This document shows, piece by piece, positions 442 through 41,470 of a stretch of 64,000 bases of DNA. Numbering within the stretch: position 1 is the first letter of the stretch; the number at the start of each line of letters is the position of its first letter. Location of the stretch: UHGV virus genome UHGV-0117634; one strand, given 5' to 3'. The DNA comes from a virus. A program made the position numbers and the translations under genes. The notes below the pieces were generated by a model. It saw nothing but the letters and a program-made list of their open reading frames with translations. It was not told the DNA's origin and searched no databases.

Positions 442-696
442 CTTAGATTCTCCAGTTTAGGATTGTTGGGGCTTGCTTACCCCGTTGATGCAAATACTAC
501 AAAACTGGATTCATAGAGTCAACAAAATTTTTAAAAATATTTTTGGCATGTTGTGAATGAAACGCGTGTACGCAACTAACAGAAAACAGAAAACTAGTCA
601 AGAATTATTTTTTAGTTCTCTACAAATTTTTCTCTTGACTTTTGGGAGGAAGGGGAGTAAGAGGGGATGGTGGGGCTGGCTTCCTATAGCTACCTA

Positions 697-890
697 CCTG
701 CACAAATTGAAAATGAATTTTCCCTTTGGAGTCCAACTGCATCTGCACAGATTGAAAATGAAAAAGCTCTTTGGAGTCTAGACCTGCACAAATTGAAAAT
801 GAATTTTCCCTTTGGAGTTCAGCTAAAGAAATCTGTCCAGAGTTCTATGCAATTGCACCTGCACAAATTTGAAATGAAAAAGCCCTCCTT
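697..890. repeat. array of four ~37-bp direct repeats (unit ~CTGCACAAATTGAAAATGAA[TTTTCCC/AAAAGCT]CTTTGGAGT), period ~42-44 bp, in a ~500-bp non-coding gap
   Basis: Copies read at ~697, ~741, ~783 and ~857, alternating between two variants; the last copy abuts a long-loop hairpin (GCCCTCC...GGAGGGC) downstream of the macro-domain gene. Confidence 0.7.
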
Positions 891-948
891 ACCTGAGATT
901 TTAAACTCAAACTTTGGAGGGCTTGTCTATGTCTATTTAGGTAACTTA

Positions 949-1743
949 TTAGTTACGTGCTTCAACATAGTTAACATTCTCATGTGTGATATAATCCTCT
1001 GCAAACTCTTCTGTAGCAGCACCGATATACACACTTGCATCATCACCAAATGTTACGGCTCTGTGGCAATGGCCTTGTAACGGGTGGGTAACTTGAGCGT
1101 TACTTTGATTGTACTTCTCAACCGGAGGGTAACTGGTGTGTACCTTGCCATTACGCTTCACCTTGAGGGTAACTTTATCCTTGCCTACCACGGCAACACC
1201 ATCAAAGTATTGAGGTTCACTAAAGTTTTCCCAACCAGTAACCGGATTAGTCAACTGACTGTACATCTTATCTTCATAGACATACATATAAACGTCAACA
1301 TCTTTCATGGTCTGATTGATGATAGACAGCACAGCCATGCTGTCAAGACCACCAATCCCTGCACCAATCATAGGAAGTCCAACTTTCTTAAGCTGGTTCA
1401 CTTTGCAGTAGTTATTAAGACGCTGCAAAGCTGCTTCTAAAGCATTGTATCGTGCATCTTTACCAGTGATAACCTGAGTGTAAAGGTTAGCAATTCGACC
1501 CTGCTTAAAACGTGCTACAGAGATGTTACCAAGCATAAGATGCTTAGGTTTATGACCTTCACCACCAACTGTAGCATAAACTTCAGCGTCAGTCTCATAA
1601 GCTTTTGGATAACGTTTAGCAATTGTTGCTGCAATACCTGCACCCATTAAGTTCATGCAGTTACAACCGTGACCAATGATATCAAACTTCTTATTATCAA
1701 AGTCTTTAAAGATATCACCTTTAATAATTTTTATGATACCCAT
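949..1743 (-). CDS. macro-domain protein (TARG1/DarG-like ADP-ribose-binding/hydrolase fold) fused to a ~100-aa C-terminal domain of unknown function
   Basis: N-terminal GDIF...DIIGHGCNCMNLMGAGIAATIAKRYP and later GLPMIGAGIGGLD match the two glycine-rich ADP-ribose-binding loops of macro domains; C-terminal part (HPLQGHCHRAV...) unrecognised. Confidence 0.65.
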   Translation of the reverse strand: MGIIKIIKGDIFKDFDNKKFDIIGHGCNCMNLMGAGIAATIAKRYPKAYETDAEVYATVGGEGHKPKHLMLGNISVARFKQGRIANLYTQVITGKDARYNALEAALQRLNNYCKVNQLKKVGLPMIGAGIGGLDSMAVLSIINQTMKDVDVYMYVYEDKMYSQLTNPVTGWENFSEPQYFDGVAVVGKDKVTLKVKRNGKVHTSYPPVEKYNQSNAQVTHPLQGHCHRAVTFGDDASVYIGAATEEFAEDYITHENVNYVEARN

Positions 1744-1744
1744 G

Positions 1745-1945
1745 TTACCATTCCTCCCACGATTCTTTATCTTCAGAAGGTTTTACACGTTGCCCTTCAT
1801 GGTCTACCCAGATTCCACCACAACCTTCACAGAGTGTTGGCATAGCATAACCAGCTTTGAAATCATCTTCAGTGATAAGACCTTTCAAGTCTCCTGTATC
1901 ACGTCCAAACATTTCAATAGAACAACTCTTGCAGAAATCAGCCAT
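1745..1945 (-). CDS. small Cys-rich protein, possible zinc ribbon (66 aa)
   Basis: CKSC ... CEGCGG cysteine pairs; start abuts upstream gene. Confidence 0.4.
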   Translation of the reverse strand: MADFCKSCSIEMFGRDTGDLKGLITEDDFKAGYAMPTLCEGCGGIWVDHEGQRVKPSEDKESWEEW

Positions 1946-2159
1946 TTAAGATTACCTCTTGAGTGACTGTACGATTACTGGTGAAAGTCTGTTTAAAACT
2001 TTCAACGTTTGAACGTAAGAAGCCTTCATCCAAATAATATTTGAAGGTTTCTTTATGTGAGAAAACCTCGGTAAACGGGATTACTTCACTTCTCCCTACA
2101 TAGATACCAGATGCTATAATTTGCCGTGTCTTTTTATTTCTGACGATTAGAACTTTCAT
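1938..2159 (-). CDS. hypothetical protein (73 aa)
   Basis: ORF-track ORF in tightly packed leftward operon. Confidence 0.3.
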   Translation of the reverse strand: MKVLIVRNKKTRQIIASGIYVGRSEVIPFTEVFSHKETFKYYLDEGFLRSNVESFKQTFTSNRTVTQEVILNG

Positions 2160-2460
2160 ACATTACCTTTTCAGTTAGTTGATATAAGTCTACATGTTCA
2201 ATGCCAACAATGTCAATACCAATTTTAGCGTAACGCTCTTTGATATCATTATCGTTCATCCAAACGAGACACCAATGATTTCTAACAGACTCTTCGAGCT
2301 TATGTACACAATCTTGGAATGTTGGGGTATCGCCTCTTGTACCAATCATGGCGATTACACCATATAGAAACTCACCATTGCCATATGTCACTTGGGCTAC
2401 ACCAATATCTTTCTCATTATCTGAGAAGACGGCTACAATGGTTTTACCATTAAGTTCCAT
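2134..2460 (-). CDS. hypothetical protein (108 aa)
   Basis: ORF-track ORF; its start overlaps the stop of the upstream small ORF. Confidence 0.4.
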   Translation of the reverse strand: MELNGKTIVAVFSDNEKDIGVAQVTYGNGEFLYGVIAMIGTRGDTPTFQDCVHKLEESVRNHWCLVWMNDNDIKERYAKIGIDIVGIEHVDLYQLTEKVMYESSNRQK

Positions 2461-2620
2461 TATAGATTACCTCTTTAATTTGTTGTAAGATTGCTTCTGA
2501 AGCTTCTTCCCATAAGGTAGAGTTTTCAATTGAATCTTTAACCTGTGCAATACCAATATTAAAACGGGTATCACCATACTCTTCAATCAAGTTAAGAAGC
2601 TTCTGTTTGTCCACAATCAT
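2453..2620 (-). CDS. small hypothetical protein (~55 aa, not in ORF track)
   Basis: ATG preceded by GAGGA Shine-Dalgarno (minus strand AAAAACGAGGAAATG); stop overlaps start of 2134..2460; fills an otherwise empty gap. Confidence 0.4.
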
Positions 2621-2630
2621 TTCCTCGTTT

Positions 2631-2885
2631 TTAACGTTGCGTAGATTTCTTTGGAGTTTTCACCGAACCAGATGTAAGATTCGTGTTGATTTCAGGATGA
2701 TTGTCAACACGAATCTTACATTCTCTTCCAACATGTTTTAACTGTGCTGTAATACCCTGAATAAACAGGTGACACATTACATCATCCATGATAGTTGGTA
2801 AGAAATCAATTCTCATATAAGTGTTACTTGGTCTTGGAAGAAGTAAGTAACCTTCTACATAAAACGTTTCACTCTTTTCTGTCAT
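2631..2885 (-). CDS. hypothetical protein (84 aa)
   Basis: ORF-track ORF. Confidence 0.4.
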   Translation of the reverse strand: MTEKSETFYVEGYLLLPRPSNTYMRIDFLPTIMDDVMCHLFIQGITAQLKHVGRECKIRVDNHPEINTNLTSGSVKTPKKSTQR

Positions 2886-3151
2886 TGCTGTTTATTCCCT
2901 AACAAAATCATATCAATCAAATTGTTTGCCTTGATAGCACATTCATAGAATCCATCACGATAAAACTCCATAGCACTAGCAAGGTCTTCACCCTTAGTAC
3001 CCTTGACAGTGTACCTAGTCTCTTCCTGAGTGTACTTGTCACTCTCACTTACTTGGGAGTTTTTGAAGGTACTGTTCACTTTGTTGGTTGAACACCCCGA
3101 TATAAGGCTCAGTAGCACAAATATTATAAAACTCTGTCTTAGTTTTTTCAT
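2882..3151 (-). CDS. lipoprotein, candidate o-spanin (overlapped with upstream gene)
   Basis: Signal peptide with lipobox (LSLISG-C); starts inside the 3' end of 3045..3392 in another frame and extends beyond it (Rz/Rz1-like overlapped architecture). Not proline-rich, so uncertain. Confidence 0.4.
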   Translation of the reverse strand: MKKLRQSFIIFVLLSLISGCSTNKVNSTFKNSQVSESDKYTQEETRYTVKGTKGEDLASAMEFYRDGFYECAIKANNLIDMILLGNKQQ

Positions 3152-3392
3152 AGGTCAATACCTCTTTTGTGTGTTTGTTTTTAGCAAGCACATCTTTCAA
3201 ATCATTTTTATAATTAGCACTAAGATTTGCTAAACCTTCTTGGTAAGCATCCTTAGCAACACTAACAAGCTTCTGATTAGTCAACTCTTTCTCGTTAACT
3301 TGGCTAGTCTTGTAAGTGTAACCGCCCCAAGCACCTACACCTAACAGAAAAATGATTACAAAAGCTGCTTGACAAAATTCTTTAAATGTCAT
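3045..3392 (-). CDS. type-II membrane protein, candidate i-spanin
   Basis: N-terminal TMD (FVIIFLLGVGAWGG) followed by charged, coiled-coil-like periplasmic region; embedded lipoprotein ORF in +1 frame. Confidence 0.4.
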   Translation of the reverse strand: MTFKEFCQAAFVIIFLLGVGAWGGYTYKTSQVNEKELTNQKLVSVAKDAYQEGLANLSANYKNDLKDVLAKNKHTKEVLTYEKTKTEFYNICATEPYIGVFNQQSEQYLQKLPSK

Positions 3393-5142: not shown

Positions 5143-5206
5143 TTGCACTCCTATTTTGTTAAACATGCAGACAATTATACATCATCCTGCACATTTTTCA
5201 AATAAA

Positions 5207-5229
5207 AAAGGCTGCCGAAGCAGCCCTTT
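5207..5229 (-). terminator. rho-independent terminator after rIIB
   Basis: Plus AAAAAAGGCTGCCGAAGCAGCCCTTT; stem GGCTGC/GCAGCC with CGAA loop, flanking A/T runs. Confidence 0.55.
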
Positions 5230-5242
5230 AGGAATTTACTTA

Positions 5243-6364: not shown

Positions 6365-6407
6365 TTTAATATCTCTCTTTGTTGTTTAAAGTTACTTAGT
6401 GGTTCGT

Positions 6408-6436
6408 ATTCTAAGGGGCTTTTCAGCCCCTGTCAA
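6408..6436 (-). promoter_or_regulatory. sigma70-like promoter for rIIB (TTGACA-N17-TAGAAT) with a GGGGCTGAAAAGCCCC hairpin in the spacer
   Basis: Minus strand TTGACA, 17-nt spacer made almost entirely of a perfect 6-bp-stem hairpin, then TAGAAT ~40 nt upstream of the rIIB ATG. Confidence 0.45.
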
Positions 6437-6443
6437 ACTATTT

Positions 6444-8816: not shown

Positions 8817-8849
8817 AAGAATATCTCCTTAGTTGTCGATGTGGCAAAC

Positions 8850-8877
8850 TATATAATTTTATAGATGCCACTGTCAA
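8850..8877 (-). promoter_or_regulatory. sigma70-like promoter upstream of rIIA (TTGACA-N16-TATATA)
   Basis: Minus strand TTGACAgtggcatctataaaatTATATA about 30 nt upstream of the rIIA ATG. Confidence 0.4.
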
Positions 8878-8878
8878 G

Positions 8879-9640: not shown

Positions 9641-11458
9641 TTACAGTTGCTTGTCAATAACTTTTCGTACATCACGAAGGTTAACGTAACCATATGGTTG
9701 TGAGTCACAGAAGACAAGCTTCAAAGCACACTGAGGGTTGTCAATGACACCTTCAAACTCTGCAAATCCTAAGCCATCTACAGCTTCCAGCTTATCACCA
9801 TCCCACATAGGAATGACACCACCAAAAGCAGATTTCTTAAGACCACTATCTGTTTTAGGGTCTTTAGCCAGCATGATTTCTTTACCATCCATCTGTGCAA
9901 GAGTTGCTTTAACAGCAAATGCAAAGGTATCGCGAGTCAAGTACTGATAAGTGTATGAACCTACACCAAACACTACGTTAGAACTTGCAAAACCCTTATC
10001 AGCAAGACGTGACAGGATATCATTAGCTCTTTCCAGAGTGATAGAATCACCGTAGATTAATCCAATGTGCTCATCCAGTACTTTGTACCCTTTGGAGTTA
10101 ACAGTGCCACCAAAGATGTTATACAGCGTGTGGATAGCCCCATCAATCTCTGCTGTCAGCATACGCTTCACAGTAAACTGTCCAGTTTTCTGAGCGGTAA
10201 TCAGGTTGATTGTATCAGCAGATTCAAAATCTTCCTTATCAACAACCATCTCATAACCTTCAGAGATTAGCCAAGCAGAGAACCCAAAGCCAATATCAGA
10301 CATTTCACAATTCAAGATTGTGTCATGCAGATGTGTATTGTTCGGTGCAAGCTCTTTCATGTGCTTGTAGAACATTGACTTAGCAGTTTCCCACTCAATG
10401 GCTTTGTAACCAGTAACAATGTGAACAGGGTCTCCAGAGTCTGGACGGATTACCAACTTACCATCACGATTCAGAATCACATTACGTAGCTCTGGTAAAA
10501 TCTGTGTAACAGTTCTCCAGAAGTTGTAAGTATCTGATACAACACTTGCAATACCAGTTGGGTAGACTTCTGTCAGAAGACGTTGGAAAGTTTCTACCTC
10601 ACCACGCCAACGCATTGCATCTAACAAGTTGTCAGACTGTAGCAGATGCCAATCACTTACTTCTTTTGCACAACTATTCCATGAGATGTTTGCACACATC
10701 ACAGAGTGTTCAGTTGCTGGTACAGAGTTCCCGATATCACTTACAGTCATAAACTGACCATATGCACGTTTAGCTGTGTATACAGCAGGGAAGCTGTCAG
10801 TACCTTTAAAACTTGTCAGGTGACCTACTGCGTTAAACGCATCATCTGTGAATCCAGACATACCACGCATTGCAAAGTCATGACACTGCCAAGGAAGATG
10901 GAAGTCGTTATCACAGGTCAAATCTGACCACTTCTTACAAATACGTTTGTAATGTAGTGCAATAGTTGCAATTGTACAAGCTTTCCAGATTTCAGCAGAG
11001 AAAGCATCTTCGAGATAACCAGCTACCCAATGGAAGCCCTCTACAGTGTTTTTGAATATAATCATCGGGACACGCATAGGGACAATTGTACCTTCCTCTA
11101 CAGAGTAGACTTCAACAGGCAGATAACCTAAGTCATGAAGTTCTTCCCAATGTTGGCGACCAATAGCATCTGCACCAAGAACACCATTCATGATTTCCAA
11201 GATTTCGTCAATGGCTTCTTTCTTATCGCGTTCAAAGAACGTTGCATTCCAGTGGTCTACCAGATAGTCTTTTACAAAACGCTGAATACCAAATGCTACA
11301 ACACCATCAATTTCTAATGGAGAGTTAAACCATTTGTCTCCACGAGGTGTTAAGTTCAGCATAAGATACTGAGTAGCATCTGGATACTGGTAGATATGAC
11401 CAGCTTTGTAAGCATCTGCGTTAAGTCCTGCTGGTACTGCATAGATTGATTTAGTCAT
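9641..11458 (-). CDS. nadV: nicotinamide phosphoribosyltransferase-family protein (NAMPT/NadV-like; candidate Namat of an NAD+ reconstitution pathway)
   Basis: Clear NAMPT motifs: DAYKAGHIYQYP, FAMRGMSGF...SFKGTDS, SVPATEHS, VVSDTYNFW, IRPDSGDP, IYGDS, FGVGSY...LTRD. Confidence 0.9.
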   Translation of the reverse strand: MTKSIYAVPAGLNADAYKAGHIYQYPDATQYLMLNLTPRGDKWFNSPLEIDGVVAFGIQRFVKDYLVDHWNATFFERDKKEAIDEILEIMNGVLGADAIGRQHWEELHDLGYLPVEVYSVEEGTIVPMRVPMIIFKNTVEGFHWVAGYLEDAFSAEIWKACTIATIALHYKRICKKWSDLTCDNDFHLPWQCHDFAMRGMSGFTDDAFNAVGHLTSFKGTDSFPAVYTAKRAYGQFMTVSDIGNSVPATEHSVMCANISWNSCAKEVSDWHLLQSDNLLDAMRWRGEVETFQRLLTEVYPTGIASVVSDTYNFWRTVTQILPELRNVILNRDGKLVIRPDSGDPVHIVTGYKAIEWETAKSMFYKHMKELAPNNTHLHDTILNCEMSDIGFGFSAWLISEGYEMVVDKEDFESADTINLITAQKTGQFTVKRMLTAEIDGAIHTLYNIFGGTVNSKGYKVLDEHIGLIYGDSITLERANDILSRLADKGFASSNVVFGVGSYTYQYLTRDTFAFAVKATLAQMDGKEIMLAKDPKTDSGLKKSAFGGVIPMWDGDKLEAVDGLGFAEFEGVIDNPQCALKLVFCDSQPYGYVNLRDVRKVIDKQL

Positions 11459-11502: not shown

Positions 11503-12402
11503 TTATTCAATATTTACTACAGTCACTTGTGAGAAGTGTGAAAGTCCACGCCATTTAGCACTTCCTAATGAATCTGTAGTGTAGATATGGTCAATACCGT
11601 TGTCAAGAAGATTTTCAACACCTTTAGAGAAAATCCCATGAGTGACATATAGTTCTACATGTTCTGCACCAGCTTCACGAAGATACTTTGCAGCCTCAAT
11701 GAAGGTACGACCACCGTCACAGATATCATCCAGAATCATGACAGTCTTACCTGTTAAGTCTACATCATCAAGGATTCGCATACCAGTTATTTCACCAGTT
11801 TTTAGGTTGCGTACCTTAGCCATTGTGATATATGGCTTTTCAACATCCTTAGCAGCTTCTTCTGTCTTCTTAGCTGCACCTGCATCTGGAGCCACTAAGT
11901 AATCAATTCGTGGGTCACTTGCAAAGTGTGATGCAACGGCTTTTTGTGGAACATTATAGAAGCACTTGAACAAATTTTCTGCTACGTTGCTGTGAACATC
12001 CAGAGCACATACAGAATCAAATTCCATAGCATTTACCAGATTGGCAAACACTTTCAATGCTGCTGCATCTCCTTTAAACATGTGTCGGTCATATCTTGCA
12101 TTTGGTAAGAAACCAAATAACACTGACTTCATTGTTGTTTGTTGAGGTATAAGGTTGTCAATTGCTTCTTTAGCCAAAGCTAATGCAAATAAGGTGTCTT
12201 TGTCATAACCTTGTACCGTGAAGATTACGTTTTCAATTTTTCCAGCAGCATGTTTAGCAAAATCTACTAAGTCTTCTGAAAAGTTACCACCAATTTCCCC
12301 TGAAGGGAACTGAATAATGTTGAAGGTCTCTTGGTGTGAACCTTTTGAATTTGAATTAAGCAGAACTTGAATAGTAGTTTCCATAGTATTTCTCTCAGTC
12401 AA
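11503..12402 (-). CDS. ribose-phosphate pyrophosphokinase (PRPP synthetase)-family protein (candidate Adps)
   Basis: PRTase-type binding loop VMILDDICDGGRTF and overall Prs-like layout; immediately upstream of the NAMPT-family gene. Confidence 0.8.
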   Translation of the reverse strand: MTERNTMETTIQVLLNSNSKGSHQETFNIIQFPSGEIGGNFSEDLVDFAKHAAGKIENVIFTVQGYDKDTLFALALAKEAIDNLIPQQTTMKSVLFGFLPNARYDRHMFKGDAAALKVFANLVNAMEFDSVCALDVHSNVAENLFKCFYNVPQKAVASHFASDPRIDYLVAPDAGAAKKTEEAAKDVEKPYITMAKVRNLKTGEITGMRILDDVDLTGKTVMILDDICDGGRTFIEAAKYLREAGAEHVELYVTHGIFSKGVENLLDNGIDHIYTTDSLGSAKWRGLSHFSQVTVVNIE

Positions 12403-12421
12403 AAGTTACGTTTGTAAATTA

Positions 12422-12871
12422 TTATTCCCAAATAATTTTCTTTCTTTTTAATTTAATGATGTTCTTTTTACAATACTCAACTGCCTCATCCATTGTATCA
12501 AACATCATCTCACCAATAAAGTACTTAACATTTGGGTTTTGCTCTTGTATTATTTGGATTTCTGTAGTTTTTACTTGGTCTTTTACACCAGTAACCAGTC
12601 TTGCTAGTCGTGGTTCATTTTCCATAAATGGTTTGCTTAACTGGTTGATATAAAGAACTCCACCATTTTTGCTACCATGCTTGACAGTCACGAGAACCCC
12701 AACTTTACGCAACGCTGATAAGTAATACCTTGAATTAGCTATCGGCATTTTCTTAAGATAATCACAATTACTTCTTAGAGCTTTCACCGCTTCATTGGAA
12801 TCAAATTCCTTATCAGTCCCGAACTTTTCGTGTAGTATCTCAACAAGCGTTACATAAAATGAGCTAATCAT
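12422..12871 (-). CDS. hypothetical protein, tandem paralog B (149 aa)
   Basis: Same length as and about 45% identical to 12898..13347 (shared EIL..KFGT..FDSNEA...YL.ALR..GVL.TV and C-terminal YFI...MF.T..EAVE.CKK.IIK.KR.KIIWE). Confidence 0.6.
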   Translation of the reverse strand: MISSFYVTLVEILHEKFGTDKEFDSNEAVKALRSNCDYLKKMPIANSRYYLSALRKVGVLVTVKHGSKNGGVLYINQLSKPFMENEPRLARLVTGVKDQVKTTEIQIIQEQNPNVKYFIGEMMFDTMDEAVEYCKKNIIKLKRKKIIWE

Positions 12872-12897
12872 AACTTTGTCTCTTTAGCTAGTGTAAA

Positions 12898-13347
12898 TTA
12901 TTCCCAAATAATCTTTGCACGTTTAATCTTAATGATGTGTTTTTTGCAATGCTCAACAGCCTCTTCTAAGGTATTAAACATCGCACTTTCAATAAAGTAC
13001 CTTACGTCAGGGTCTGTGTCAACAATTTTGTTCTCATCTTTATTTTTAGGTTCTTCATGTGATTCATCCAATAATGGTGATAGCTGGATGTGCTTTTCCA
13101 TGAAGGATTTATTTAACTGGTTAATGCTCAGTCTACCTTTACTTTTTATCTGGCCTACAGTCATTAGTACACCAGTTTGTCGTAATGCTGTCAAGTAACC
13201 ACGAGCATTATTAATTGATTGACCTCTAATGTATAGGCTTTTCTTTCGAAGTACATCAATAGCCTCATTAGAATCAAATGTCCCCTCTGTTCCAAACTCT
13301 TTATACAAAATTTCTATTACATGTTTTTGTAAATTACAAAAAATCAT
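12898..13347 (-). CDS. hypothetical protein, tandem paralog A (149 aa)
   Basis: Paralog of 12422..12871; conserved GTAACTTTTGACTGAGAGAAA leader upstream. Confidence 0.6.
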   Translation of the reverse strand: MIFCNLQKHVIEILYKEFGTEGTFDSNEAIDVLRKKSLYIRGQSINNARGYLTALRQTGVLMTVGQIKSKGRLSINQLNKSFMEKHIQLSPLLDESHEEPKNKDENKIVDTDPDVRYFIESAMFNTLEEAVEHCKKHIIKIKRAKIIWE

Positions 13348-13358
13348 AATATTTTCTC

Positions 13359-13652
13359 TCAGTCAAAAGTTACAAATGTTACAGCCATAGCTGTTTTACA
13401 TTTCTTTGGGTCTACAGTGTGATAAATAACTAAACAGTTACCTGTTCCATCTGGTACTGGTTTTGTCCAAGTACGTTCAATATTTGGCTCTCCAAATTCT
13501 TTATAGAATCCGTTGGAGTAGTGGTCAATCATCTCAATAGCAAGTGCATCTGGGACGTGACCACGTATCATATACATCTCACTACCGTTTCCAGCTTCAC
13601 TAATAAGTTCTTTGATATCCCATTGTTCTCTAGACATGATAAGTTGCCTCAT
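13359..13652 (-). CDS. hypothetical protein (97 aa)
   Basis: ORF-track ORF. Confidence 0.4.
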   Translation of the reverse strand: MRQLIMSREQWDIKELISEAGNGSEMYMIRGHVPDALAIEMIDHYSNGFYKEFGEPNIERTWTKPVPDGTGNCLVIYHTVDPKKCKTAMAVTFVTFD

Positions 13653-14145
13653 AAACTTCCCTAAACTTCAACAAGAGAGATATTGCCAGAACTGCATAGC
13701 TCCTGTCAAGCATTGGTGGCATATTATTTTTAAGATATGCTTTCTGTTCTTCCCAAGTCATCTTAGGAGTCTCAGGAAGTTTCTCACCTTGCTTCTGATT
13801 ATCTTCTTGTGTCTGGATAAACCAGTTTGAGCAATGGTGCTCTCCACCTTTTGTCACAGGCTTATGGTGGCCTAATGTGAAAGCTTTCTTTCCAGAATAT
13901 CTACAAAGCTTATTAAGGGTTGCAATAGTGTTCTTGACAACGCAGTATTCATAGAGGTTGTCAATAGTGTAATGAGGGTAGTACTGGAACAAGGCACTAT
14001 CACGGAACTTACCACGATTCCAAAGCACCATGTGATTAGAATTTGAAGGGTCATACTTATGTGACTCGATGAACTCTTGACGCTCATCAAAATCAAGACG
14101 AAGAACAGACATTGCAGCAGCACGTTTCATATTTGAATGGTACAT
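13630..14145 (-). CDS. hypothetical protein with possible HNH-like nuclease motif
   Basis: LGHHKPVTKGGEHHCSNW resembles the HH..P..GG....N HNH core; weak. Confidence 0.35.
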   Translation of the reverse strand: MYHSNMKRAAAMSVLRLDFDERQEFIESHKYDPSNSNHMVLWNRGKFRDSALFQYYPHYTIDNLYEYCVVKNTIATLNKLCRYSGKKAFTLGHHKPVTKGGEHHCSNWFIQTQEDNQKQGEKLPETPKMTWEEQKAYLKNNMPPMLDRSYAVLAISLLLKFREVYEATYHV

Positions 14146-16267: not shown

Positions 16268-16336
16268 ATTTTAATACTCTGCTCCAATAAAAAGGTGATG
16301 CAAGCCTATCAAGACCTACACCACCTTGTCAACTAC

Positions 16337-20363: not shown

Positions 20364-22598
20364 CTAAACACCACAACCTTCGCAGTAAGCATCTTGAAGT
20401 GCTGATTTACCAACACCAATACGACTGTTTAGGTAGTACATGGTTTTCATACCTACAGAGTTTGCATAAATCATGTACTTCAAAGCTTGCTCTAATGATA
20501 CCTTCTTAGACTTCGAGTAGTCAACATAGAAATCTGAAGAGATAGCTTGACCAGTGAATTTTTGAACAATTGCATAGCAATCAATCATATCAAATGTGTC
20601 AATATCCCAAGCAATTTCATAGACATACTTCAACTCTTCGTAGTCTGGTACGATAAACAGTACGTTACCAGTGGCAGACTTTTTAGTTAAAATAAAGTCA
20701 CGGATTGGGTACAAGCCATTTGTCGTATTAGTTGCTAGTGAAGAACTCTCGTTAGGCATGTAAGCTTCTAATACAGAGTTTCGGATTCCACCATTTTCTT
20801 TGATACGTTGTGCTAAGTCATCCCAATCATATCTTAGTTTTGCATCATGTTTTTCATCAATCTTCTTGTTAGCTGTCTTAGTTGGAACCCAACCATCAGG
20901 GTACTTAGTAAACTTCATGTACTCAGGCACACCACGCTCTTTAGACAGTCTCAGTGAAGCCTCATGCAGATAGAATGAGTGCATCTCTGCAAGTTCATGT
21001 AGCTTCGTTTTACCAGCCCTTGAAGAGTAGTTCACGTAGTTCTTTGCAAGGTAATGAGCCACATTTGTAAGGCCAATCCCAACAGAGCGACGTTTCTGTA
21101 CATGGTTACGCATCGACGGATACGGGTAGTCCATGAGGTCAATAACGGAGTCAACCATTGCAAGAGCATAATAAGCAACGTCAGCGTATTCATCTTCTGA
21201 AATTCTCCCTGCAACCAAACTAGCTAGGAAGCAAAGAGCTACTTCACCATCTTCTTTAGCAGCATTGTAGCTGTAAAGGTCTGTCTCTTTCTCAAATCCA
21301 TAAACTGGCAATATAATTTCCATGCACAGGTTAGACATTTTCAAAGGTTCTTTGAACGGCGTATGTGTGTTTGCGTTGTTCGTAAAGAACGGATAAACAC
21401 GACCAGTTGCATAACGTTGCTGGATAAACAACTTAGCAATCTCACGAGCTTTTACTCGCTTATGTTTAACACCAGTGTGAACCGCATGTCCAACAGCCAT
21501 TGCAAACTCATCTGCACTTGCTGTGTAGAACATATCATACAATTTTGGAGCGTCCTTGTAAGAGAATAGTAGCCAATCTGTATCGTACTGCACACATTGC
21601 CAGAAGTAATCGTTTGTTCCAAATGAGTAATCCATCTCATTAATACGCTTTGAAGTAACCGTTGTAGGGTGCTTCAGACGAAGTAAATCTTCAATCTGAG
21701 GGTCAAGAGCAGTGTAGAAGTTGTTCGCTGAACCACCACGACTCTTCTGCTTATTAGCCTCTACAGCAGCACGTACCAGCTTATAATAAGGGAGTTTTCC
21801 CATATGCTCAATAGTGTTTTGTCGGATACCGTCACCAATTGTTCTGGTCTCCATCAGCATACCAATACCTGCTTGCTTAGTGGTCATGTCATAAGCTACT
21901 TTTGTAGCAATGCCAAGAGATTCAGCAGTATCATTTGCTTTAATTAGGCAGCATGAAGCGTAGCCAGATTTTGTAGCTCTCAGACCATTCAGATACGGTG
22001 TAGGAGCATTAATCTTCAGGTCAGATAGATATGTGTAGAGCTTAATAACATCATCTAAACGCCGCTGTTTAGGCTGTCTTTCAAAGGCTTTCATAGCCAT
22101 ACCCATGAACATAAACTGTGGAGACTCAAACAGCTTACCACTTTTAATGTCACGGATTCCATACTTATCACGGAACTGCTTCAGCACTGCATACCCATAA
22201 GAGATATCTTTCGAATGTACGATGTGACCTTGTAAGTAGTCAATCTCTTCAGGTGTGTAATCCATGTGTTCCCAAAGTCCCATCTGCTCCATCTTCATCA
22301 CAAATGGAAGTAACTGAGGAACCTTTGTAAATCCACCAAAAGCTTCTTTGTAGATAATGCCAAGAAGTAGTCTCCCAGCCATATCAGAGTACTCTTGAGT
22401 TTGTTTATCAATACAAACGTCAATCATAGCTTGGTGCATTTCTTTTGTTGTACAACCTTCATAGACACGCTTCATAGCTTCCATTACAACTTCTGACCAG
22501 ATAATTCCTCTCTTGTCAGCCCATGAAGCCCATTTATTTAAACGTTCTGGTTCGAATGGTACGATTGTACCGTCTGATTTGCGAATAGTAGTAATCAT
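20364..22598 (-). CDS. nrdA: ribonucleotide reductase class I large subunit
   Basis: N-terminal ATP-cone (MITTIRKSDGTIVPFEPERL), 744 aa, C-terminal Cys pair (CEGCGV). Confidence 0.85.
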   Translation of the reverse strand: MITTIRKSDGTIVPFEPERLNKWASWADKRGIIWSEVVMEAMKRVYEGCTTKEMHQAMIDVCIDKQTQEYSDMAGRLLLGIIYKEAFGGFTKVPQLLPFVMKMEQMGLWEHMDYTPEEIDYLQGHIVHSKDISYGYAVLKQFRDKYGIRDIKSGKLFESPQFMFMGMAMKAFERQPKQRRLDDVIKLYTYLSDLKINAPTPYLNGLRATKSGYASCCLIKANDTAESLGIATKVAYDMTTKQAGIGMLMETRTIGDGIRQNTIEHMGKLPYYKLVRAAVEANKQKSRGGSANNFYTALDPQIEDLLRLKHPTTVTSKRINEMDYSFGTNDYFWQCVQYDTDWLLFSYKDAPKLYDMFYTASADEFAMAVGHAVHTGVKHKRVKAREIAKLFIQQRYATGRVYPFFTNNANTHTPFKEPLKMSNLCMEIILPVYGFEKETDLYSYNAAKEDGEVALCFLASLVAGRISEDEYADVAYYALAMVDSVIDLMDYPYPSMRNHVQKRRSVGIGLTNVAHYLAKNYVNYSSRAGKTKLHELAEMHSFYLHEASLRLSKERGVPEYMKFTKYPDGWVPTKTANKKIDEKHDAKLRYDWDDLAQRIKENGGIRNSVLEAYMPNESSSLATNTTNGLYPIRDFILTKKSATGNVLFIVPDYEELKYVYEIAWDIDTFDMIDCYAIVQKFTGQAISSDFYVDYSKSKKVSLEQALKYMIYANSVGMKTMYYLNSRIGVGKSALQDAYCEGCGV

Positions 22599-26710: not shown

Positions 26711-26761
26711 TTTAATACCTCTTTCTCAAATTAACTTTCAACTCAATTATCAAGGAGTACA

Positions 26762-26790
26762 ATCTTACAGACTTCGTACTCCATTGTCAA
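26762..26790 (-). promoter_or_regulatory. sigma70-like promoter upstream of SSB-like gene (TTGACA-N17-TAAGAT)
   Basis: Minus strand TTGACAatggagtacgaagtctgTAAGAT, ~50 nt upstream of the ATG. Confidence 0.4.
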
Positions 26791-26796
26791 ACATTT

Positions 26797-26934
26797 TTAA
26801 GCAGATTTTTTAGCTGCTTTACGAGCTGTCTTACCTGTGCGAACTCGCTTCTGTACATAGTGTTCAGCAGACTTACCAGCAGTTGCTTTCATGGAATCGC
26901 CAAATACTTTCTCAAATGCTTTAGAATGTTTCAT
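26797..26934 (-). CDS. small basic protein (~45 aa, not in ORF track)
   Basis: MKHSKAFEKVFGDSMKATAGKSAEHYVQKRVRTGKTARKAAKKSA; ATGA overlap with stop of 26931..27212. Confidence 0.35.
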   Translation of the reverse strand: MKHSKAFEKVFGDSMKATAGKSAEHYVQKRVRTGKTARKAAKKSA

Positions 26935-30169: not shown

Positions 30170-30964
30170 TTATTGTAGTTGAGAACCAGTGAGTTCACGC
30201 TCAGACATTGCTTCTAGCTGCTGAACAAACTCTTCACCGAAGTTGATTGCAATTTTGGTGCTAAGAACTGCTGCACCAGTTTGACTAAATACTTCTCCGA
30301 GTGCTGCTGTATGAGCACCTTGTGACATGCTCTCTACAAAGCTTGGGTCAGACTCTAACATTTTTGACACTTCAAGTAAAGCATGAATACCCATGATACT
30401 AAAGATGGCATTTAACATTGAAGTTACTTTAACCTGAATAGGGTCTAGAGAGAGACCATTAGTAATCTCTGACAGCTTATTCATTGTCTCATCAGCATAC
30501 TGAATTGCCTTGTCAGATACTTCATCAAAGCCCCAATCCAGTTTTACATAACGTGGTGACTTATCATTCATACGCTTCTCTAGTGATGCCATTACAGCAG
30601 CAACTGGCGTACAAATACCTTTCAGAAGGTCTTCATCACTCATGTTATCAAGCTCTTTAATACCCTGCTCAGTAATCTGGATGTATCCACCTGAATACAT
30701 TTCATCAAAGATATATGTTGCAAAAGCATCAACACCAATGAGGATGGTTTTCAGAGCATCAGTCTTATTAGATAGCAGGTATTCAACCTCTTTACGGAAA
30801 TCTTCGTCATTCTCTACAGCGTTTTTTACAACACGCAGAGATTCAGGGATAAATTTTCCTGACAGTGAGTTGCTACGCATAATGATAGCAAGAGTCTCAA
30901 CAGTGTTCAGCATGAATGCTTCGTCAATACCTTTTTCTTCCAGAATCTCATTTACAGTTTTCAT
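30170..30964 (-). CDS. hypothetical protein (264 aa)
   Basis: ORF-track ORF. Confidence 0.45.
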   Translation of the reverse strand: MKTVNEILEEKGIDEAFMLNTVETLAIIMRSNSLSGKFIPESLRVVKNAVENDEDFRKEVEYLLSNKTDALKTILIGVDAFATYIFDEMYSGGYIQITEQGIKELDNMSDEDLLKGICTPVAAVMASLEKRMNDKSPRYVKLDWGFDEVSDKAIQYADETMNKLSEITNGLSLDPIQVKVTSMLNAIFSIMGIHALLEVSKMLESDPSFVESMSQGAHTAALGEVFSQTGAAVLSTKIAINFGEEFVQQLEAMSERELTGSQLQ

Positions 30965-31388
30965 CTTTAATCTCTCTCATTTTGTTAATAGTAAGTCGTG
31001 ATAATCTTAAGCTTTCTTGTGAAGAGAAGTCAAGTCCTTTTTCAGACCGTGGGAAGTAATTTCTGTCCCACGTATTCTCTGCATCCTGAAGCAGTTGGGA
31101 TAGACTATCTAAGTCCGTTCCATTTTGCAACTTATTTTTTAAGGTATCTATCAAAAAGATTGTGTCTTTCGCTTTACGTCTTTCTGAAGATATCTCTTTC
31201 ATGTGCTCAAATACCGAGCACTTTAAACCTTCGTCGTATCCACTTGATAGTTCTATCTCATGCTGAACATCAACCATTCGACGATGTTGATAAGCATACT
31301 CCTTCTGAGCCTCAATGTAAAGTGCTTCAACTCTTTCTAAAGCTTGGACAAGGTTATTGATATCTGGGTGAACGTACATCCTCTGCAT
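30948..31388 (-). CDS. hypothetical protein (146 aa)
   Basis: First gene of the leftward block next to the divergent control region. Confidence 0.45.
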   Translation of the reverse strand: MQRMYVHPDINNLVQALERVEALYIEAQKEYAYQHRRMVDVQHEIELSSGYDEGLKCSVFEHMKEISSERRKAKDTIFLIDTLKNKLQNGTDLDSLSQLLQDAENTWDRNYFPRSEKGLDFSSQESLRLSRLTINKMREIKDENCK

Positions 31389-31648
31389 AATTGCCTCTGT
31401 TAAGTATCTATAAAGATTTTAATCTCTTATCTTTATGTATGTTATACATATAACTTTAAAGCTTTTTTAAAAGCTATTAAAAATCTTTTGAGACTTTTAA
31501 AGAAACTGTATAGTTAATCTATAAAGGGAGTCTATTAAGATAAAACCCACTTCGAAAAGACTAACACCTTGTCAAGCAGTTTGTCAACTTGCTTTTTGCA
31601 GAAAATTGCTGTAGGGTATTATCCAGAATGATTTGAGAGGGAGTAAAA
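31389..31648. promoter_or_regulatory. divergent AT-rich control region with palindromes (AGCTTTTTTAAAAGCT; TATGTATgttATACATA) and TTGTCAA direct repeats
   Basis: 260-bp gene-free gap between oppositely oriented blocks; a 16-bp perfect palindrome at ~31466..31481; candidate operators and promoters, exact -35/-10 not resolved. Confidence 0.45.
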
Positions 31649-34348
31649 ATGGACAATGTAGATTTCGAAAAATTACATTTGGTTGGTGATACAGAAACTG
31701 ATGGGTTGCTCCTTGAGTTTACAAAAGCACACGTAATGGCTTTCGCAGACTATAAAGATGACAGTGATGAACCTGCTGTGTGGGTTTTCACTGATGAGCC
31801 TATTCTTGGTCACAAGTATACAAAATACATCAAAGGTGGTCTGCGTGAAGGTGTTGAGTTTGCACTGAAAGCTAAACGTCTTTGTATCCACAATGGTCTT
31901 GGTTATGACTGGTGGGTGTTTAATCACATTGCACCTGACCTGTGGAACTTTGAGAATCCTAAGTGTAAGCCTTGGAGTGACTTCTTTCAGGATTCACTTA
32001 TCCAATCTCGCGTACAGTGGATGGATAGAACTACACCAAAAGGTTACAAAGGTGCTCATGGTTTGGCTGCATGGGGTGCTCGTGTTGGTGTTCGTAAACC
32101 AGAGATTGAAGAGTGGGGTGTCTGGAATGCAGAGATTCTTACTCGTGTTGTAGAAGATATTAAGATTAACGCCAAAACTAAACGTGCTCTTGACAATGAG
32201 TATCTCAAGCTTAAGAAGTGTGGCGTGGATACTTATGAAACCTACATGCGAGCTAAAGAAACATCTTTCTGGATGAGTCAGCAAGCTATCAACGGTTGGA
32301 AAGCTGATGTAGAGCTTATGCAGTTCCACGTTAAAGAGCTTGACAAGTTAACTAATGAGTTGGCTGCTGAGGTTGAACCACACCTTCCACCAACTATTAA
32401 GACAAAAGGTAAAGTCACAGGTGAAGAATTTGCCAAGTCTTGGAACGAGTATGTAGATACATTTGGTCACGTTGACGGCTTAAAAAGGATTACCAAGTAC
32501 CCTAAGACAAAGTATCGTGAACAGATGCGTGAAGGTGAGTTGAAGCAGTACCCTATTAAGCCATATGGTAAGCCAACTACAAAGATTTTTAATGTTGAGA
32601 AACGCAACTGCTACACTCCAACTAACACGGTCACAAAAGAAGAGTACCCTGAAGGTTTTGTAGCAATGAAAGATGCTCGTGCAGTTTGTAATGAACTGAA
32701 TGAGAAGATTGGCAAGAAGTGTAAAGATTGGAAGCCAGTTAAGACTGTGAAAACTGTGAAGTACTACAATGTTCACGTTGTTAATCACTTTGAGTTAGAG
32801 TCTAGTCGCTACACTGGTTTGATTGATGCACCATTTACACCAATTGAGTTTGAAGTTTCACGAATGACTCAGGTAGCTGTGGTGAAGGATTACTTAAAAT
32901 CTGTTGGTTGGATTCCTGATGATTGGAACTATAAAAAAGATTCTGATGGTCGTCCTATCAAGGTTTGCAGATTCAAAGACAACAAAAAGATGATTCGCAA
33001 ACATCCTAAGTGGGATGAGATGGTTGAGCGTTGTGGGTTGAACTATATTGAGCATGAAGGTGTCTATTACATCGAGCATAACTGGTCTGTTAAGAAGTAC
33101 ACAGATGTGCTTGAACCTTGCTTGATTAGGACTTCACCAAAGCTTACAGAGTCTTCTTATGATACAATCGAAGGTGAGCTTGGACAGAAGATTGCGAAGT
33201 ACTATACTTTGATGCACCGACGCAGGACTATTGAGAACTCAAAGGATGATGAGAAAGGTTGGCTGAACCAGATTCGTCCAGATGGTCGTTTGAGTGCAGG
33301 TGCAATGGTGTTTGGTACTTCTACTGGACGTATGACTCAGTATGGTATTGTAAACGTACCTTCTGGTGCTGCTGTTTACGGTGAGCCAATGAGGGCAGTG
33401 TGGATTTGTGAAGAGGGAACCAACGTAGTATCTGTTGATATGAACTCTGCACAGCTTGTACTACTCTGTAACTTCATGGGTGATAAAGACTTCACCAAAG
33501 CGGTAACAGAGGGTAAAGAAGAGATTGAGTTTGTTCGTCAAGAGGATGGAAGATACTACTGCAAACACTTTGACCAGTATCTGAATCCAGAGATTGACAA
33601 GTATCTGCGTTATGACTCTGAAAACGATTTGTACGTAGTTTACTCAGGGACTGATGCTCACACTCTGAACAGTATCTACTTCAGCCTTAATGATGAGCAA
33701 GATATCTTGACTTGTCGTGCTACTCAGGATGAGAATCTTCTTCATGAGATTAGCAAGGGACGTAAGAAAGCTAAGAATGGTATCTATGCCCTGTTGTTCG
33801 GTGCAGGTGATGAGAAGTTTGCTAAAACAATTAAAGCAGCAACTACTCAGGAAGGTGCATTGACTAAGCAGACTTACTTTGTGCGTTTACCGAAGATTAA
33901 GAAACTGTTAGACAACTTGGAAGCTGATTTCAAAGCAACTAAGAAAGCACTTGAAGAGGTGTTTGGTAAGACTGCTGCAATCTCTAAAGGTGGTTTTGTG
34001 AAGGTTGCTGGGGCTTGGCTGTGGTGTAAGTCTCCACACAAACTCTTGAACTATTTGTTAATGGGTTCAGAAGCACAAGTTCAGAATGAAGCAATCAACC
34101 TTGCATGTCGTCGTATGATTGATGAGGGTTTGATGAAGTTGAATGGTCGTAAACCAGCTATTGGTGCTCGCTTACTCTGTGCTTACCACGATGAAACAAG
34201 CTGGGAATGTCCAGAGAGCATGACAGCAGATGTGAAAGCAGTAACTGACTGGTATTATGGTCAAGCATCTAAGAACCTTGGACTAAGAAAAGAGACACTA
34301 GTCACAGGTGCAGGGAAAGTTGGTAAATCGTGGCTTGAAGTCCACTAA
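31649..34348 (+). CDS. DNA polymerase, family A, with 3'-5' exonuclease domain
   Basis: Exo I motif DTETDGLL; Pol A motif B RKKAKNGIYALLFG and motif C YHDE; 899 aa. Confidence 0.9.
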   Translation: MDNVDFEKLHLVGDTETDGLLLEFTKAHVMAFADYKDDSDEPAVWVFTDEPILGHKYTKYIKGGLREGVEFALKAKRLCIHNGLGYDWWVFNHIAPDLWNFENPKCKPWSDFFQDSLIQSRVQWMDRTTPKGYKGAHGLAAWGARVGVRKPEIEEWGVWNAEILTRVVEDIKINAKTKRALDNEYLKLKKCGVDTYETYMRAKETSFWMSQQAINGWKADVELMQFHVKELDKLTNELAAEVEPHLPPTIKTKGKVTGEEFAKSWNEYVDTFGHVDGLKRITKYPKTKYREQMREGELKQYPIKPYGKPTTKIFNVEKRNCYTPTNTVTKEEYPEGFVAMKDARAVCNELNEKIGKKCKDWKPVKTVKTVKYYNVHVVNHFELESSRYTGLIDAPFTPIEFEVSRMTQVAVVKDYLKSVGWIPDDWNYKKDSDGRPIKVCRFKDNKKMIRKHPKWDEMVERCGLNYIEHEGVYYIEHNWSVKKYTDVLEPCLIRTSPKLTESSYDTIEGELGQKIAKYYTLMHRRRTIENSKDDEKGWLNQIRPDGRLSAGAMVFGTSTGRMTQYGIVNVPSGAAVYGEPMRAVWICEEGTNVVSVDMNSAQLVLLCNFMGDKDFTKAVTEGKEEIEFVRQEDGRYYCKHFDQYLNPEIDKYLRYDSENDLYVVYSGTDAHTLNSIYFSLNDEQDILTCRATQDENLLHEISKGRKKAKNGIYALLFGAGDEKFAKTIKAATTQEGALTKQTYFVRLPKIKKLLDNLEADFKATKKALEEVFGKTAAISKGGFVKVAGAWLWCKSPHKLLNYLLMGSEAQVQNEAINLACRRMIDEGLMKLNGRKPAIGARLLCAYHDETSWECPESMTADVKAVTDWYYGQASKNLGLRKETLVTGAGKVGKSWLEVH

Positions 34349-34409
34349 TAGTGTTGACAAGGTGCTCATGGAAGAGTACCTTATACTATATATTATATAG
34401 GAGACTTGT

Positions 34410-34610
34410 ATGACTATTTCAGAAATTGAAGTTCAACTGCAATGTGCTGGATATTCTCAAAGTGAGATTGAGGCTATGTGCATCATCATTTGCAGTAGCC
34501 ATAAGCACCTCAAGCTTTCTAATGAAAATCTTCGCAAGGTTGATATTTTTATTGCTGGAGGTAAGATTATCAAGGATAAGACAGGATACCTTAAAGGTGA
34601 ACGTCTATGA
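34410..34610 (+). CDS. hypothetical protein (66 aa)
   Basis: ORF-track ORF with RBS. Confidence 0.4.
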   Translation: MTISEIEVQLQCAGYSQSEIEAMCIIICSSHKHLKLSNENLRKVDIFIAGGKIIKDKTGYLKGERL

Positions 34611-36581: not shown

Positions 36582-36589
36582 AGGCCAGT

Positions 36590-36739
36590 ATGTTTAGTGC
36601 AATTGTTCTGTTTATATTTGTTGTTTTATCATTGGCTTACTTCACAAGTAAACTCTTAAGTATAACATACAAAGCAGCCTTAGCCTTTACTCTGTTGTCA
36701 TTTGTAGTAAATGCAGTAGTCAGAGAATTTTTAGTATAA
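36590..36739 (+). CDS. small hydrophobic protein (~49 aa, not in ORF track)
   Basis: MFSAIVLFIFVVLSLAYFTSKLLSITYKAALAFTLLSFVVNAVVREFLV; GAGG RBS. Confidence 0.35.
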   Translation: MFSAIVLFIFVVLSLAYFTSKLLSITYKAALAFTLLSFVVNAVVREFLV

Positions 36740-36744
36740 AGTTG

Positions 36745-36772
36745 TTGACATGAAGAATCTGACGGGTATACT
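36745..36772 (+). promoter_or_regulatory. sigma70-like promoter (TTGACA-N16-TATACT)
   Basis: Near-consensus hexamers ~50 nt upstream of 36823 ORF; inverted repeat TCTGACGGG...CCCGTCAGA brackets the -10 and leader. Confidence 0.55.
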
Positions 36773-36822
36773 GCCTATATAGAAAATTATATATTAACCC
36801 GTCAGAAATCTCGGAGGTAGTT

Positions 36823-37205: not shown

Positions 37206-37409
37206 ATGAAGAAGAACATCTGTAGAACAGACTATGGTGAAGTGGTCGATGATGACGGAGTAGTTATTTACAGAGTTTGGGCTAATGATTTTTCAACCCT
37301 TGTAGAGTCTTTAGATAACTACATCAACGGGACTCGTGAAAACGTCAGAGCAACTAATCTTGATTCGTTAATAGACACTTCTCGAAAGCGGAGAAAGAAA
37401 GATGAATGA
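37206..37409 (+). CDS. hypothetical protein (67 aa)
   Basis: ORF-track ORF. Confidence 0.4.
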   Translation: MKKNICRTDYGEVVDDDGVVIYRVWANDFSTLVESLDNYINGTRENVRATNLDSLIDTSRKRRKKDE

Positions 37410-37701
37410 AGTCTTCGACCCTTATGCACCTCAAGATTCTTGGGAGGCTGATAGAGAGGCTGAAATGGAGAGTTATGTCTGTCCAATGGATATAGAAGAG
37501 ATGAAAGACTTTGTATCTTTCAGATTCTCTAAAGAGATTGAGAAGCTAAAACTTTCTCAGGCTCAAGTAGCAACTGTTTGTGAAATCTCACAGAGTCGTG
37601 TATCAAATATCATTAACGACCCTCAAAAGATTTCTTTAGAGTACATGCTTAATGCTTGTACAAAACTTGGTGTAAATTTTAACTTAAGGCTGGCAGATTA
37701 A
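37402..37701 (+). CDS. helix-turn-helix (XRE/Cro-like) DNA-binding protein with acidic N-terminus
   Basis: LSQAQVATVCEISQSRVSNI resembles XRE-family HTH. Confidence 0.45.
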   Translation: MNEVFDPYAPQDSWEADREAEMESYVCPMDIEEMKDFVSFRFSKEIEKLKLSQAQVATVCEISQSRVSNIINDPQKISLEYMLNACTKLGVNFNLRLAD

Positions 37702-41384: not shown

Positions 41385-41433
41385 TTAATCACCTTACTTC
41401 TTGAGCCAAGATGGTGAGAATACCTACTAAGAA

Positions 41434-41462
41434 ATATTAACACCATCTTGACAGTTAGTCAA
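41434..41462 (-). promoter_or_regulatory. sigma70-like promoter (TTGACT-N17-TAATAT) for 41384..40816 genes
   Basis: Minus strand hexamers with 17-nt spacer; overlaps palindrome TTGACagttaGTCAA. Confidence 0.4.
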
Positions 41463-41470
41463 CAAGGTAA

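Follow-up and report, generated by a model that had tools for sequence, protein, structure and literature searches.

A conserved divergent gene junction in a Felix O1-like phage with predicted back-to-back host-type promoters and a three-copy tandem-box module

The virus genome UHGV-0117634 was analysed over a stretch of 64,000 nt (hereafter the window), and a simple ORF map of this stretch contains a single divergent gene junction, the 260 nt at 31389-31648; the next strand switch, at ~40.8 kb, is convergent. What this gap does for the two gene blocks that lead away from it, and which of its sequences do so, is the question addressed here. It had been described as a divergent control region and as the only large gap between oppositely transcribed blocks, holding two palindromes and TTGTCAA direct repeats that were offered as candidate operators of an early/middle switch. 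The statement on large gaps holds for divergent junctions, but same-strand gaps of 220-350 nt are present as well.

A 1.1-kb query spanning the gap matched the Shigella phages Henu11, Henu12 and Sf16 at 99% identity and Sf14 at 98.5%, with more than 220 Felix O1-like phages as more distant matches, and by these matches the source of the window is a Felix O1-like phage of the Ounavirinae, genus Mooglevirus. In Sf14 the left flank encodes on the minus strand a 146-aa hypothetical protein, a so-called minor tail protein, dNMP kinase, primase/helicase and exonuclease, and the right flank encodes on the plus strand DNA polymerase, small unknown genes, DNA ligase and a Cro/C1-type HTH protein. The gap is orthologous to the gap between genes 96 and 97 of Felix O1, for which divergent early promoters were assumed and no promoter-like sequence was found (Whichard et al. 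2010, PMC3185647). In Felix O1, transcripts of ORFs 96 (the polymerase), 101 and 105 appear within 5 min (PMC3185647). At the level of titles and abstracts, we found no transcription-start mapping in the literature for any Ounavirinae phage.

Across six relatives, identity within the gap was 77-93% vs 56-83% at the third codon positions of both flanking genes, and since the intergenic sequence is the more conserved of the two, the comparison indicates purifying selection on the gap. An alignment of 23 unique sequences, drawn from Mooglevirus, Suspvirus, Sf13-like phages and Felixounavirus, showed 167 of the 260 positions to be invariant, and conservation was lowest at 31598-31636; a metagenome scan for gap variants returned 13 loci and hardly any added diversity. 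A hidden small gene was considered and rejected because the alignment has one-base indels in several places, and the internal AGGGAGT has no start codon after it. As the sole divergent junction of the window, conserved beyond its flanking synonymous sites and equivalent to the Felix O1 96-97 gap, the locus is well described as a divergent control region.

The two TTGTCAA copies are where they had been placed, at 31569 and 31581, and both are invariant across relatives; as direct repeats, however, they would have been read on the wrong strand; on the minus strand (TTGACAA-ACTGC-TTGACAA) they are better explained by a leftward promoter, P_L, of which they would be TTGACA -35-type boxes. The second copy supplies, on the opposite strand, the predicted -35 of P_L, TTGACA at 31582-31587, invariant in 22 sequences, and an 18-nt spacer, ungapped in 22/22 sequences, separates it from the predicted -10, TAGTCT at 31558-31563 (TAATCT in Felixounavirus), which has TGT just before it in the manner of an extended -10. 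This -10 shares three of six positions with TATAAT, with T-12, A-11 and T-7 all retained, and the whole site scores 9.6-10.1 bits by PWM in every lineage. The first copy forms a second TTGACAA box inside the spacer (31569-31575, minus strand), 12 nt downstream of the -35 box and likewise invariant. It is part of the 11-mer TTGACAAGGTG, of which the window has three exact copies, each forming the -35 region of a PWM promoter match. No -10 follows this second box at 16-18 nt in the window sequence; among the relatives, L025 alone has such a -10, as TTGACA-16-TGCAGT at 8.0 bits, below the 10.1 bits of P_L in the same sequence.

P_L is the top minus-strand sigma-70 PWM site, at the same alignment columns, in 7/7 representative lineages. 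We also compared the orthologous gaps of more distant relatives whose polymerases are 61-68% identical, namely Pectobacterium phage Wc4, Erwinia phage phiEa21-4, phi63_307 and L029, an 85-kb IMG/VR contig. There the top minus-strand site is TTGACA-17-TAGGCT (Wc4), TTGACA-17-TACATT (phiEa21-4 and phi63_307) or TTGACA-17-TAATGT (L029). The site thus combines a -35 close to TTGACA and a spacer within 16-18 nt with an orthologous position in distant relatives. From this conservation and layout we infer a start at 31550-31552, near 31551, and a leader of ~163 nt that is 80% A+T. A more proximal leftward candidate, ATAACA-18-TAAAAT, was rejected as it is not conserved in Felixounavirus.

Back-to-back with P_L, one base away from its -35, lies the predicted -35 of a rightward promoter, P_R: TTGCTT at 31589-31594 on the plus strand (invariant CTTGCTTTTT, at the same columns in all lineages). 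A spacer of 17 nt, fixed in length without gaps and variable in sequence, leads to the predicted -10, TAGGGT at 31612-31617, which reads TAATGT, TAAGGT or TAGTGT in relatives with its T, A, G and T positions conserved. Conserved hexamers around a variable spacer of fixed length are the classic footprint of a promoter, and it is as such that we predict P_R. The match itself, TTGCTT-17-TAGGGT, is weak at 5.5-6.7 bits. Stronger equivalents, both adjoining the TTGACA box, were found in L029 (TTGCAA-17-TACTAT) and Wc4 (TTGACC-17-CATACT), and phi63_307 has TTGACT-17-TACTAT ~25 nt further right than the P_R position. The back-to-back layout recurs in five lineages, as far as Erwinia and Pectobacterium phages. 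In the window sequence a rightward TTGAGA-15-TATAGT (31488-31514) scores above P_R at 8.6 bits, and its -35 is not conserved.

The predicted P_R start, ~31624, would lie 25 nt ahead of the polymerase ATG at 31649, whose Shine-Dalgarno GAGGGAG is at 31637-31643 on the plus strand (invariant AGAGGGAGT). A translational operator on the polymerase leader of the kind known for T4 gp43 was rejected, the predicted 5' UTR being ~25 nt and the segment from the -10 to the Shine-Dalgarno the least conserved in the gap. T4 middle promoters usually have 11-13 nt between the MotA box and the -10; CTTGCTTTTT taken as a MotA box would have 15 nt here, and was also rejected. So was a DnaA-box-like TTATCCAGA at 31618-31626, which is not conserved in relatives.

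In a single sequence the score of P_L is not significant by itself, because equally good sites occur about once per 2 kb: 59 PWM sites of at least 9.5 bits were counted in the window (128 kb, both strands), and P_L falls inside the range of the other promoter-like sites. In the non-structural blocks these sites follow the genes, 31 of 36 being in the sense (minus) orientation up to and including P_L and 6/6 on the plus strand in 31.6-41 kb; within the structural block there is no sense bias. Other intergenic regions of the phage contain clear host-type promoters with perfect TTGACA boxes. A standard promoter scan missed both P_L and P_R, since it needs at least 4/6 matches in each hexamer, and the -10 of P_L (TAGTCT/TAATCT) and both hexamers of P_R are far off consensus.

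We think it probable that the gap is where host sigma-70 RNA polymerase starts divergent early transcription in this Felix O1-like phage. P_L would fire leftward from ~31551, giving a transcript with the long leader followed by the leftward block (146-aa protein, dNMP kinase, primase/helicase and exonuclease), and P_R would fire rightward from ~31624 into the DNA polymerase gene. Of the TTGTCAA copies, one would then serve as the P_L -35, and the other would be a further box in its spacer, conserved to the same degree. Back-to-back divergent sigma-70 promoters form a familiar class, and the gap resembles it in opposite-strand -35s one base apart, 17-18 nt spacers, TAnnnT -10s and a position between early genes. 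It differs, as far as the predicted promoters go, in the second perfect -35-like box in the spacer and the non-consensus -10s, and also in the long, highly conserved AT-rich leader on the leftward unit. The gap is real and functional, yet ordinary, host-type divergent early promoters being what would be expected at such a place.

The P_L leader also has a motif array. Three 8-mers, CTGTATAG, CTATAAAG and CTATTAAG, stand at 13-nt spacing at 31506-31539 on the plus strand, reading CTWWANAG in the leftward sense at about +12 to +45. Two further 8-mers, CTTTATAG and CTTAACAG in sense, are found together with the Shine-Dalgarno AGAGGC of the first leftward gene at 31393-31415 (minus strand). The pattern CT[GA]T[AT][AT]AG, a motif defined post hoc from the same data, has five copies in the gap, none of them on the minus strand; it is ~31-fold denser there than in the window, and relatives conserve its C, T, T, A and G. 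Comparable arrays with 11-13 nt spacing are present in Wc4, phiEa21-4 and L029, and in both paralogous copies of what appears to be one module. Its layout is TTGACAA, 5 nt, TTGACAA, 3-5 nt, TAnnnT, ~20 nt, and then two to four sense-oriented CTWWANAG 8-mers 11-14 nt apart.

Sf14 has one paralogous copy ahead of gp001 (33-112) and another ahead of gp024 and the tRNA cluster (11971-12089), the latter in the second divergent junction of the genome. An nhmmer profile made from P_L and the first ~60 nt of its leader matched Sf14 at 33-110 (E 1e-5) and 11969-12056 (E 0.011), with no further match in the window besides those two places, and matched Felix O1 at 11264-11346 (E 1.5e-5) and 21513-21600 (E 6e-6). 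The last of these is promoter P41 of Whichard et al. (21515-21543), a paralogue of the P_L module that resembles P_L in its tandem TTGACAA boxes and TAGGCT -10. Whichard et al. 2010 (PMC3185647), in contrast, paired the first P41 box with TATAGG at 15 nt, and described neither the tandem-box/8-mer layout nor the three-fold paralogy. By these matches a genome has three copies of the module, and every one of them precedes the start of a gene. When folded, the three 5' leaders showed neither a structure in common nor a shared boxA/boxB-like hairpin. It is a tentative idea, which we put forward with some doubt, that the tandem boxes act together with the phased CTWWANAG array as a common cis-regulatory unit, the target of a phage or host factor. 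If this were true, early transcription might be switched off by binding of the factor to the spacer box and the 8-mers, or the factor might load onto RNA polymerase there and bring about read-through of the many terminators inside the operons concerned. Either would explain how Felix O1, with neither a phage RNA polymerase nor a known sigma modifier, times its transcription, a question that the 2010 genome paper left open (Whichard et al. 2010, PMC3185647). The three-copy module is the one feature of the gap that deserves experiment.

The same leader contains both palindromes. The one described as a perfect 16-bp palindrome, AGCTTTTTTAAAAGCT, is present at 31460-31475, but it is not perfect: its reverse complement is AGCTTTTAAAAAAGCT, so that it is an inverted repeat with 7-nt arms around a TT spacer, and its length varies. 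Its run of six T is private to the window sequence (five T in 21 relatives and in L066, a near-identical metagenome contig), and an extra G breaks the symmetry in L005 and L027. It is contained in a longer imperfect inverted repeat of conserved sequence at ~31455-31481, TTTAAAGCTTTT-TT-AAAAGCT(A)TTAAA, with TTTAAAGCTTTT/AAAAGCTATTAA as arms, a loop of TT or T, and a break in two lineages. The second palindrome fared better, being an exact 7+3+7 inverted repeat, TATGTAT-GTT-ATACATA, at 31434-31450. In 21 distinct sequences from relatives it is 100% paired, with a loop of GTT or TCT and two compensatory pair changes (TACGTAT/ATACGTA and AACGTAT/ATACGTT), and pairing drops to 4-63% in slid controls, from which its symmetry appears to be kept by selection. 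Two palindromes with 7-nt arms are borderline for such an AT-rich 260 nt (mean 0.27 and P(>=2)=0.058 in dinucleotide shuffles), and the case that they matter is made by the comparative evidence of conserved pairing, not by single-sequence composition.

Counted from the predicted starts, the palindromes occupy about +75 to +117 in the P_L leader and -149 to -190 of P_R, and neither overlaps a predicted promoter. They may then be features of the P_L leader, such as an RNA hairpin, a protein site or an origin element, and the 17-nt palindrome in particular is probably either a hairpin in the leader RNA or a dimer-binding site in the transcribed region. Its left arm, together with the flank, repeats the 8-mer in inverted orientation, and its substitutions also fit pairing with the 8-mer at 31519-31526, a pairing that lies within a long plus-sense hairpin of 31 pairs (99% paired). 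This long hairpin was rejected as the decisive structure, being made of near-palindromic repeats and sharing its two covarying columns with the local hairpin. Both repeats fall in the most AT-rich 150 nt of the window (31396-31545, GC 20.7% vs 25.3% for the next lowest). The 103-nt centre of this core, as single-stranded DNA, folds better than 200/200 shuffles on either strand (z -3.3 and -3.1), and z-scores for the whole leader are weak. RNAalifold gave similar energies and covariation terms on both strands with different structures, and consensus folding of both strands showed no decisive covariation outside the 17-nt hairpin. In Rfam 15 at permissive thresholds the best score for the gap was 20.4 bits, for Histone3 (threshold 34) and by chance resemblance to the AT hairpin, all other families staying below half their thresholds. 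There is no intrinsic terminator in 30800-32200, the palindrome stems holding one or two G-C pairs, and a tandem repeat finder returned nothing on the gap.

Three accounts of these elements were weighed beside the promoter reading. That one or both palindromes bind a dimeric phage repressor, e.g., the Cro/C1-type HTH protein encoded at 37402-37701, which would shut off or re-time the early promoters, gains from the symmetry of 31434-31450 being preserved through two double changes. Its 7+3+7 geometry is that of HTH-dimer operators and within the 14-18 bp of a palindromic Cro/CI-type operator. The rightward block does encode an HTH_3 protein (99 aa, 72% identical between Mooglevirus and Felixounavirus), and phage records with this protein number 259, as do those with the gap sequence. 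However, the palindromes overlap no predicted -35, -10 or start and stand 75-190 nt off, with 31434-31450 at +101 to +117 from the predicted P_L start and at -174 to -190 from that of P_R. Neither has a second copy in the 64 kb of the window, where sites with up to three mismatches number 6 vs 5.8 expected, and the spacer length of the 16-nt repeat differs between close relatives. Moreover, the recognition helix SQ(S/A)RVSNI is near-invariant while the half-site changes (TAT/TAC/AAC), a weak test given the few lineages; the S/A change does not track the half-site, SUSP having S with TACGTAT. With no promoter overlap, no second copy and no tracking by the helix, the proposal that the palindromes are operators of an early/middle switch has lost ground, and we now consider it unlikely. 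Such a switch may yet work at the gap, but none of the results singles out the palindromes as the sites it would use. Lambda early control (OL/OR and nut sites) is alike in its divergent early units, leaders with conserved cis elements and a phage Cro/C1-type HTH protein. The gap differs in that its palindromes are off the promoters, single-copy and not co-varying with the HTH helix, no boxA/boxB-like hairpin is common to the three leaders, and the phage is virulent.

An AT-rich palindromic core beside a promoter also recalls a T7-type replication origin, in which P_L transcription would enter the melted stretch and primase/helicase and polymerase would start from there. A predicted promoter directly upstream of the lowest-GC 150 nt of the window is the arrangement of such an origin, the core has excess self-complementarity on both strands, and it is located between the primase/helicase and polymerase genes. 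Felix O1 gp96 and gp101 resemble the T7-group polymerase and gp4 (PMC3185647). A GC-skew turning point coincides with the gap; the skew changes sign both here and at the ~40.8 kb switch, and the change at the gap is fully accounted for by the switch of gene strand. A 1.6-kb non-coding region elsewhere (1572-3170 in Sf14 and 12306-13927 in Felix O1), packed with TGTTAAG, TTGTTAG and CTATAYAG repeats, is at least as good a candidate, and the module is triplicated, its other copies having no comparable AT-rich core. Next to the T7 primary origin, with its tandem promoters and AT-rich stretch, the phage is alike in a promoter followed by the most AT-rich stretch and in a T7-like primase/helicase and family A polymerase. 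It differs in that the predicted gap promoter is host-type and not for a phage RNA polymerase and in the larger repeat-rich non-coding region elsewhere. Origin mapping for Felix O1 was not found in the literature at the level of titles and abstracts, and we regard an origin at this place as improbable. The remaining account gives the palindromes no palindrome-dependent function at all: the leader would be built of near-palindromic AT-rich 8-mers (~CTATATAG) in both orientations, kept, e.g., for DNA curvature, host nucleoid-protein binding or as translation-enhancer-like sequence. The borderline result for composition alone (P 0.058) agrees with this, as do the left arm and flank of 31434-31450 being an inverted 8-mer, the 16-nt repeat tolerating a change of loop length and a bulge, and the covariation, which is not specific to one structure since pairing with the 8-mer at 31519 survives the same substitutions. 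In contrast, without selection on symmetry it is hard to explain two independent double-sided changes alongside complete pairing in all 21 distinct sequences, and slid controls are paired at 4-63% only, so that this account, too, seems rather unlikely to us.

Felix O1-like phages serve in Salmonella typing and are candidates for biocontrol and therapy. The reading of the gap as host-type divergent early promoters adds testable promoter coordinates for both early blocks and places the predicted leftward promoter within a three-copy module, which may be of use for annotation and for engineering of these phages, e.g., in the choice of insertion sites and early expression signals. Downstream of P_L, the first leftward gene (30948-31388, minus strand) encodes the 146-aa product. 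A PDB fold search with this protein gave no match at E<0.1, Pfam had none and PHROGs lists it as 'unknown function'; its predicted structure is all-helical (pLDDT 70.5). Ahead of its ATG, CTTAACAGAGG resembles CTTAAAAGAGG ahead of the ATG at the paralogous module of Sf14. On the other side of the gap, the 906-aa version of the polymerase, which some annotations begin at an upstream ATG, meets a stop codon in the window sequence.

The predicted leftward sigma-70-type promoter of the divergent gap, P_L, has two promoter-leader paralogues, which lie at 33-112 and 11971-12089 in Sf14 (L074) and at 11264-11346 and 21513-21600 in Felix O1 (L076). At the second divergent junction the leader of the paralogue carries a conserved palindrome, AGATATC-TTTCTG-GATATCT, and the paralogue is opposed by a promoter, TTGACT-17-TACCAT, that points leftward at a distance of about 35 nt. 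When two or fewer mismatches were allowed, tandem boxes were observed 6 times, where 2 were expected. A set of three TTGAMAA-like boxes spaced 12 nt apart, followed by TACACT, occupies the minus strand of the window at 11578-11618, within the 3' end of one gene and upstream of the next.

Counting sigma-70-like sites that score 9.5 bits or more, we found that 31 of 36 and 6 of 6 were sense-oriented in the non-structural blocks (window 1-41000), many of them intragenic, whereas the strand bias was absent among sites at this cut-off in the structural-gene block (41000-64000). Many intergenic promoters of the window have an inverted repeat directly after TTGACA (e.g., TTGACAGGGGCTGAAAAGCCCCTTAGAAT), its 5' arm beginning immediately past the -35 element and the -10 element sitting within the loop. 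Such units are found on the minus strand at 6365-6443, 8817-8878, 16268-16336, 26711-26930 and 41385-41470, and on the plus strand at 34349-34425 and 36582-36822; they look like overlapping terminator-promoter cassettes. A further repeated motif was seen in the 500-nt non-coding region at window 442-948, where, in minus-strand sense, a sequence close to TTTTCATTTTCAATTTGTGCAGGT plus a CT-rich stretch occurs in four copies. The terminator at 5167-5242, read in the same sense, is followed by TGTGCAGG, and several terminators in the window end in TTTTTCATTT. Promoter activity or a role in processing, specific to the phage, is possible for this motif.

A non-coding region of 1.6 kb that lies beyond the window (1572-3170 in Sf14; 12306-13927 in Felix O1) is dense in short repeats in both orientations, namely TGTTAAG (present 10 times in Sf14, 16 times in Felix O1), TTGTTAG, CTATAYAG and CTTAAAAG. 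The 8-mers of the divergent gap, CTWWANAG, are similar to motifs of this region, which is a candidate site for an origin, for packaging or for protein loading.

The leftward block opens with a gene (window 30948-31388, minus strand) for a conserved 146-aa protein, a member of PHROG 4039, annotated as of unknown function. It matched no Pfam family; the predicted structure is all-helical with a long helical hairpin (pLDDT 70.5) and returned no significant structural match. On the rightward side, some database records take an upstream ATG as the polymerase start (906 aa in Felix O1; ATGATTTTAGAGGGAG...). Because that frame meets a TGA after two codons in the window (ATG ATT TGA, within 31627-31651), the conserved start is the ATG at 31649, behind GAGGGAG. 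In Kolesnikvirus phages the divergent control region is separated from the polymerase gene by an inserted HNH endonuclease gene, at approximately 974-1517 in locus coordinates in phiEa21-4, phi63_307 and ST-3 (L034, L035 and L036).
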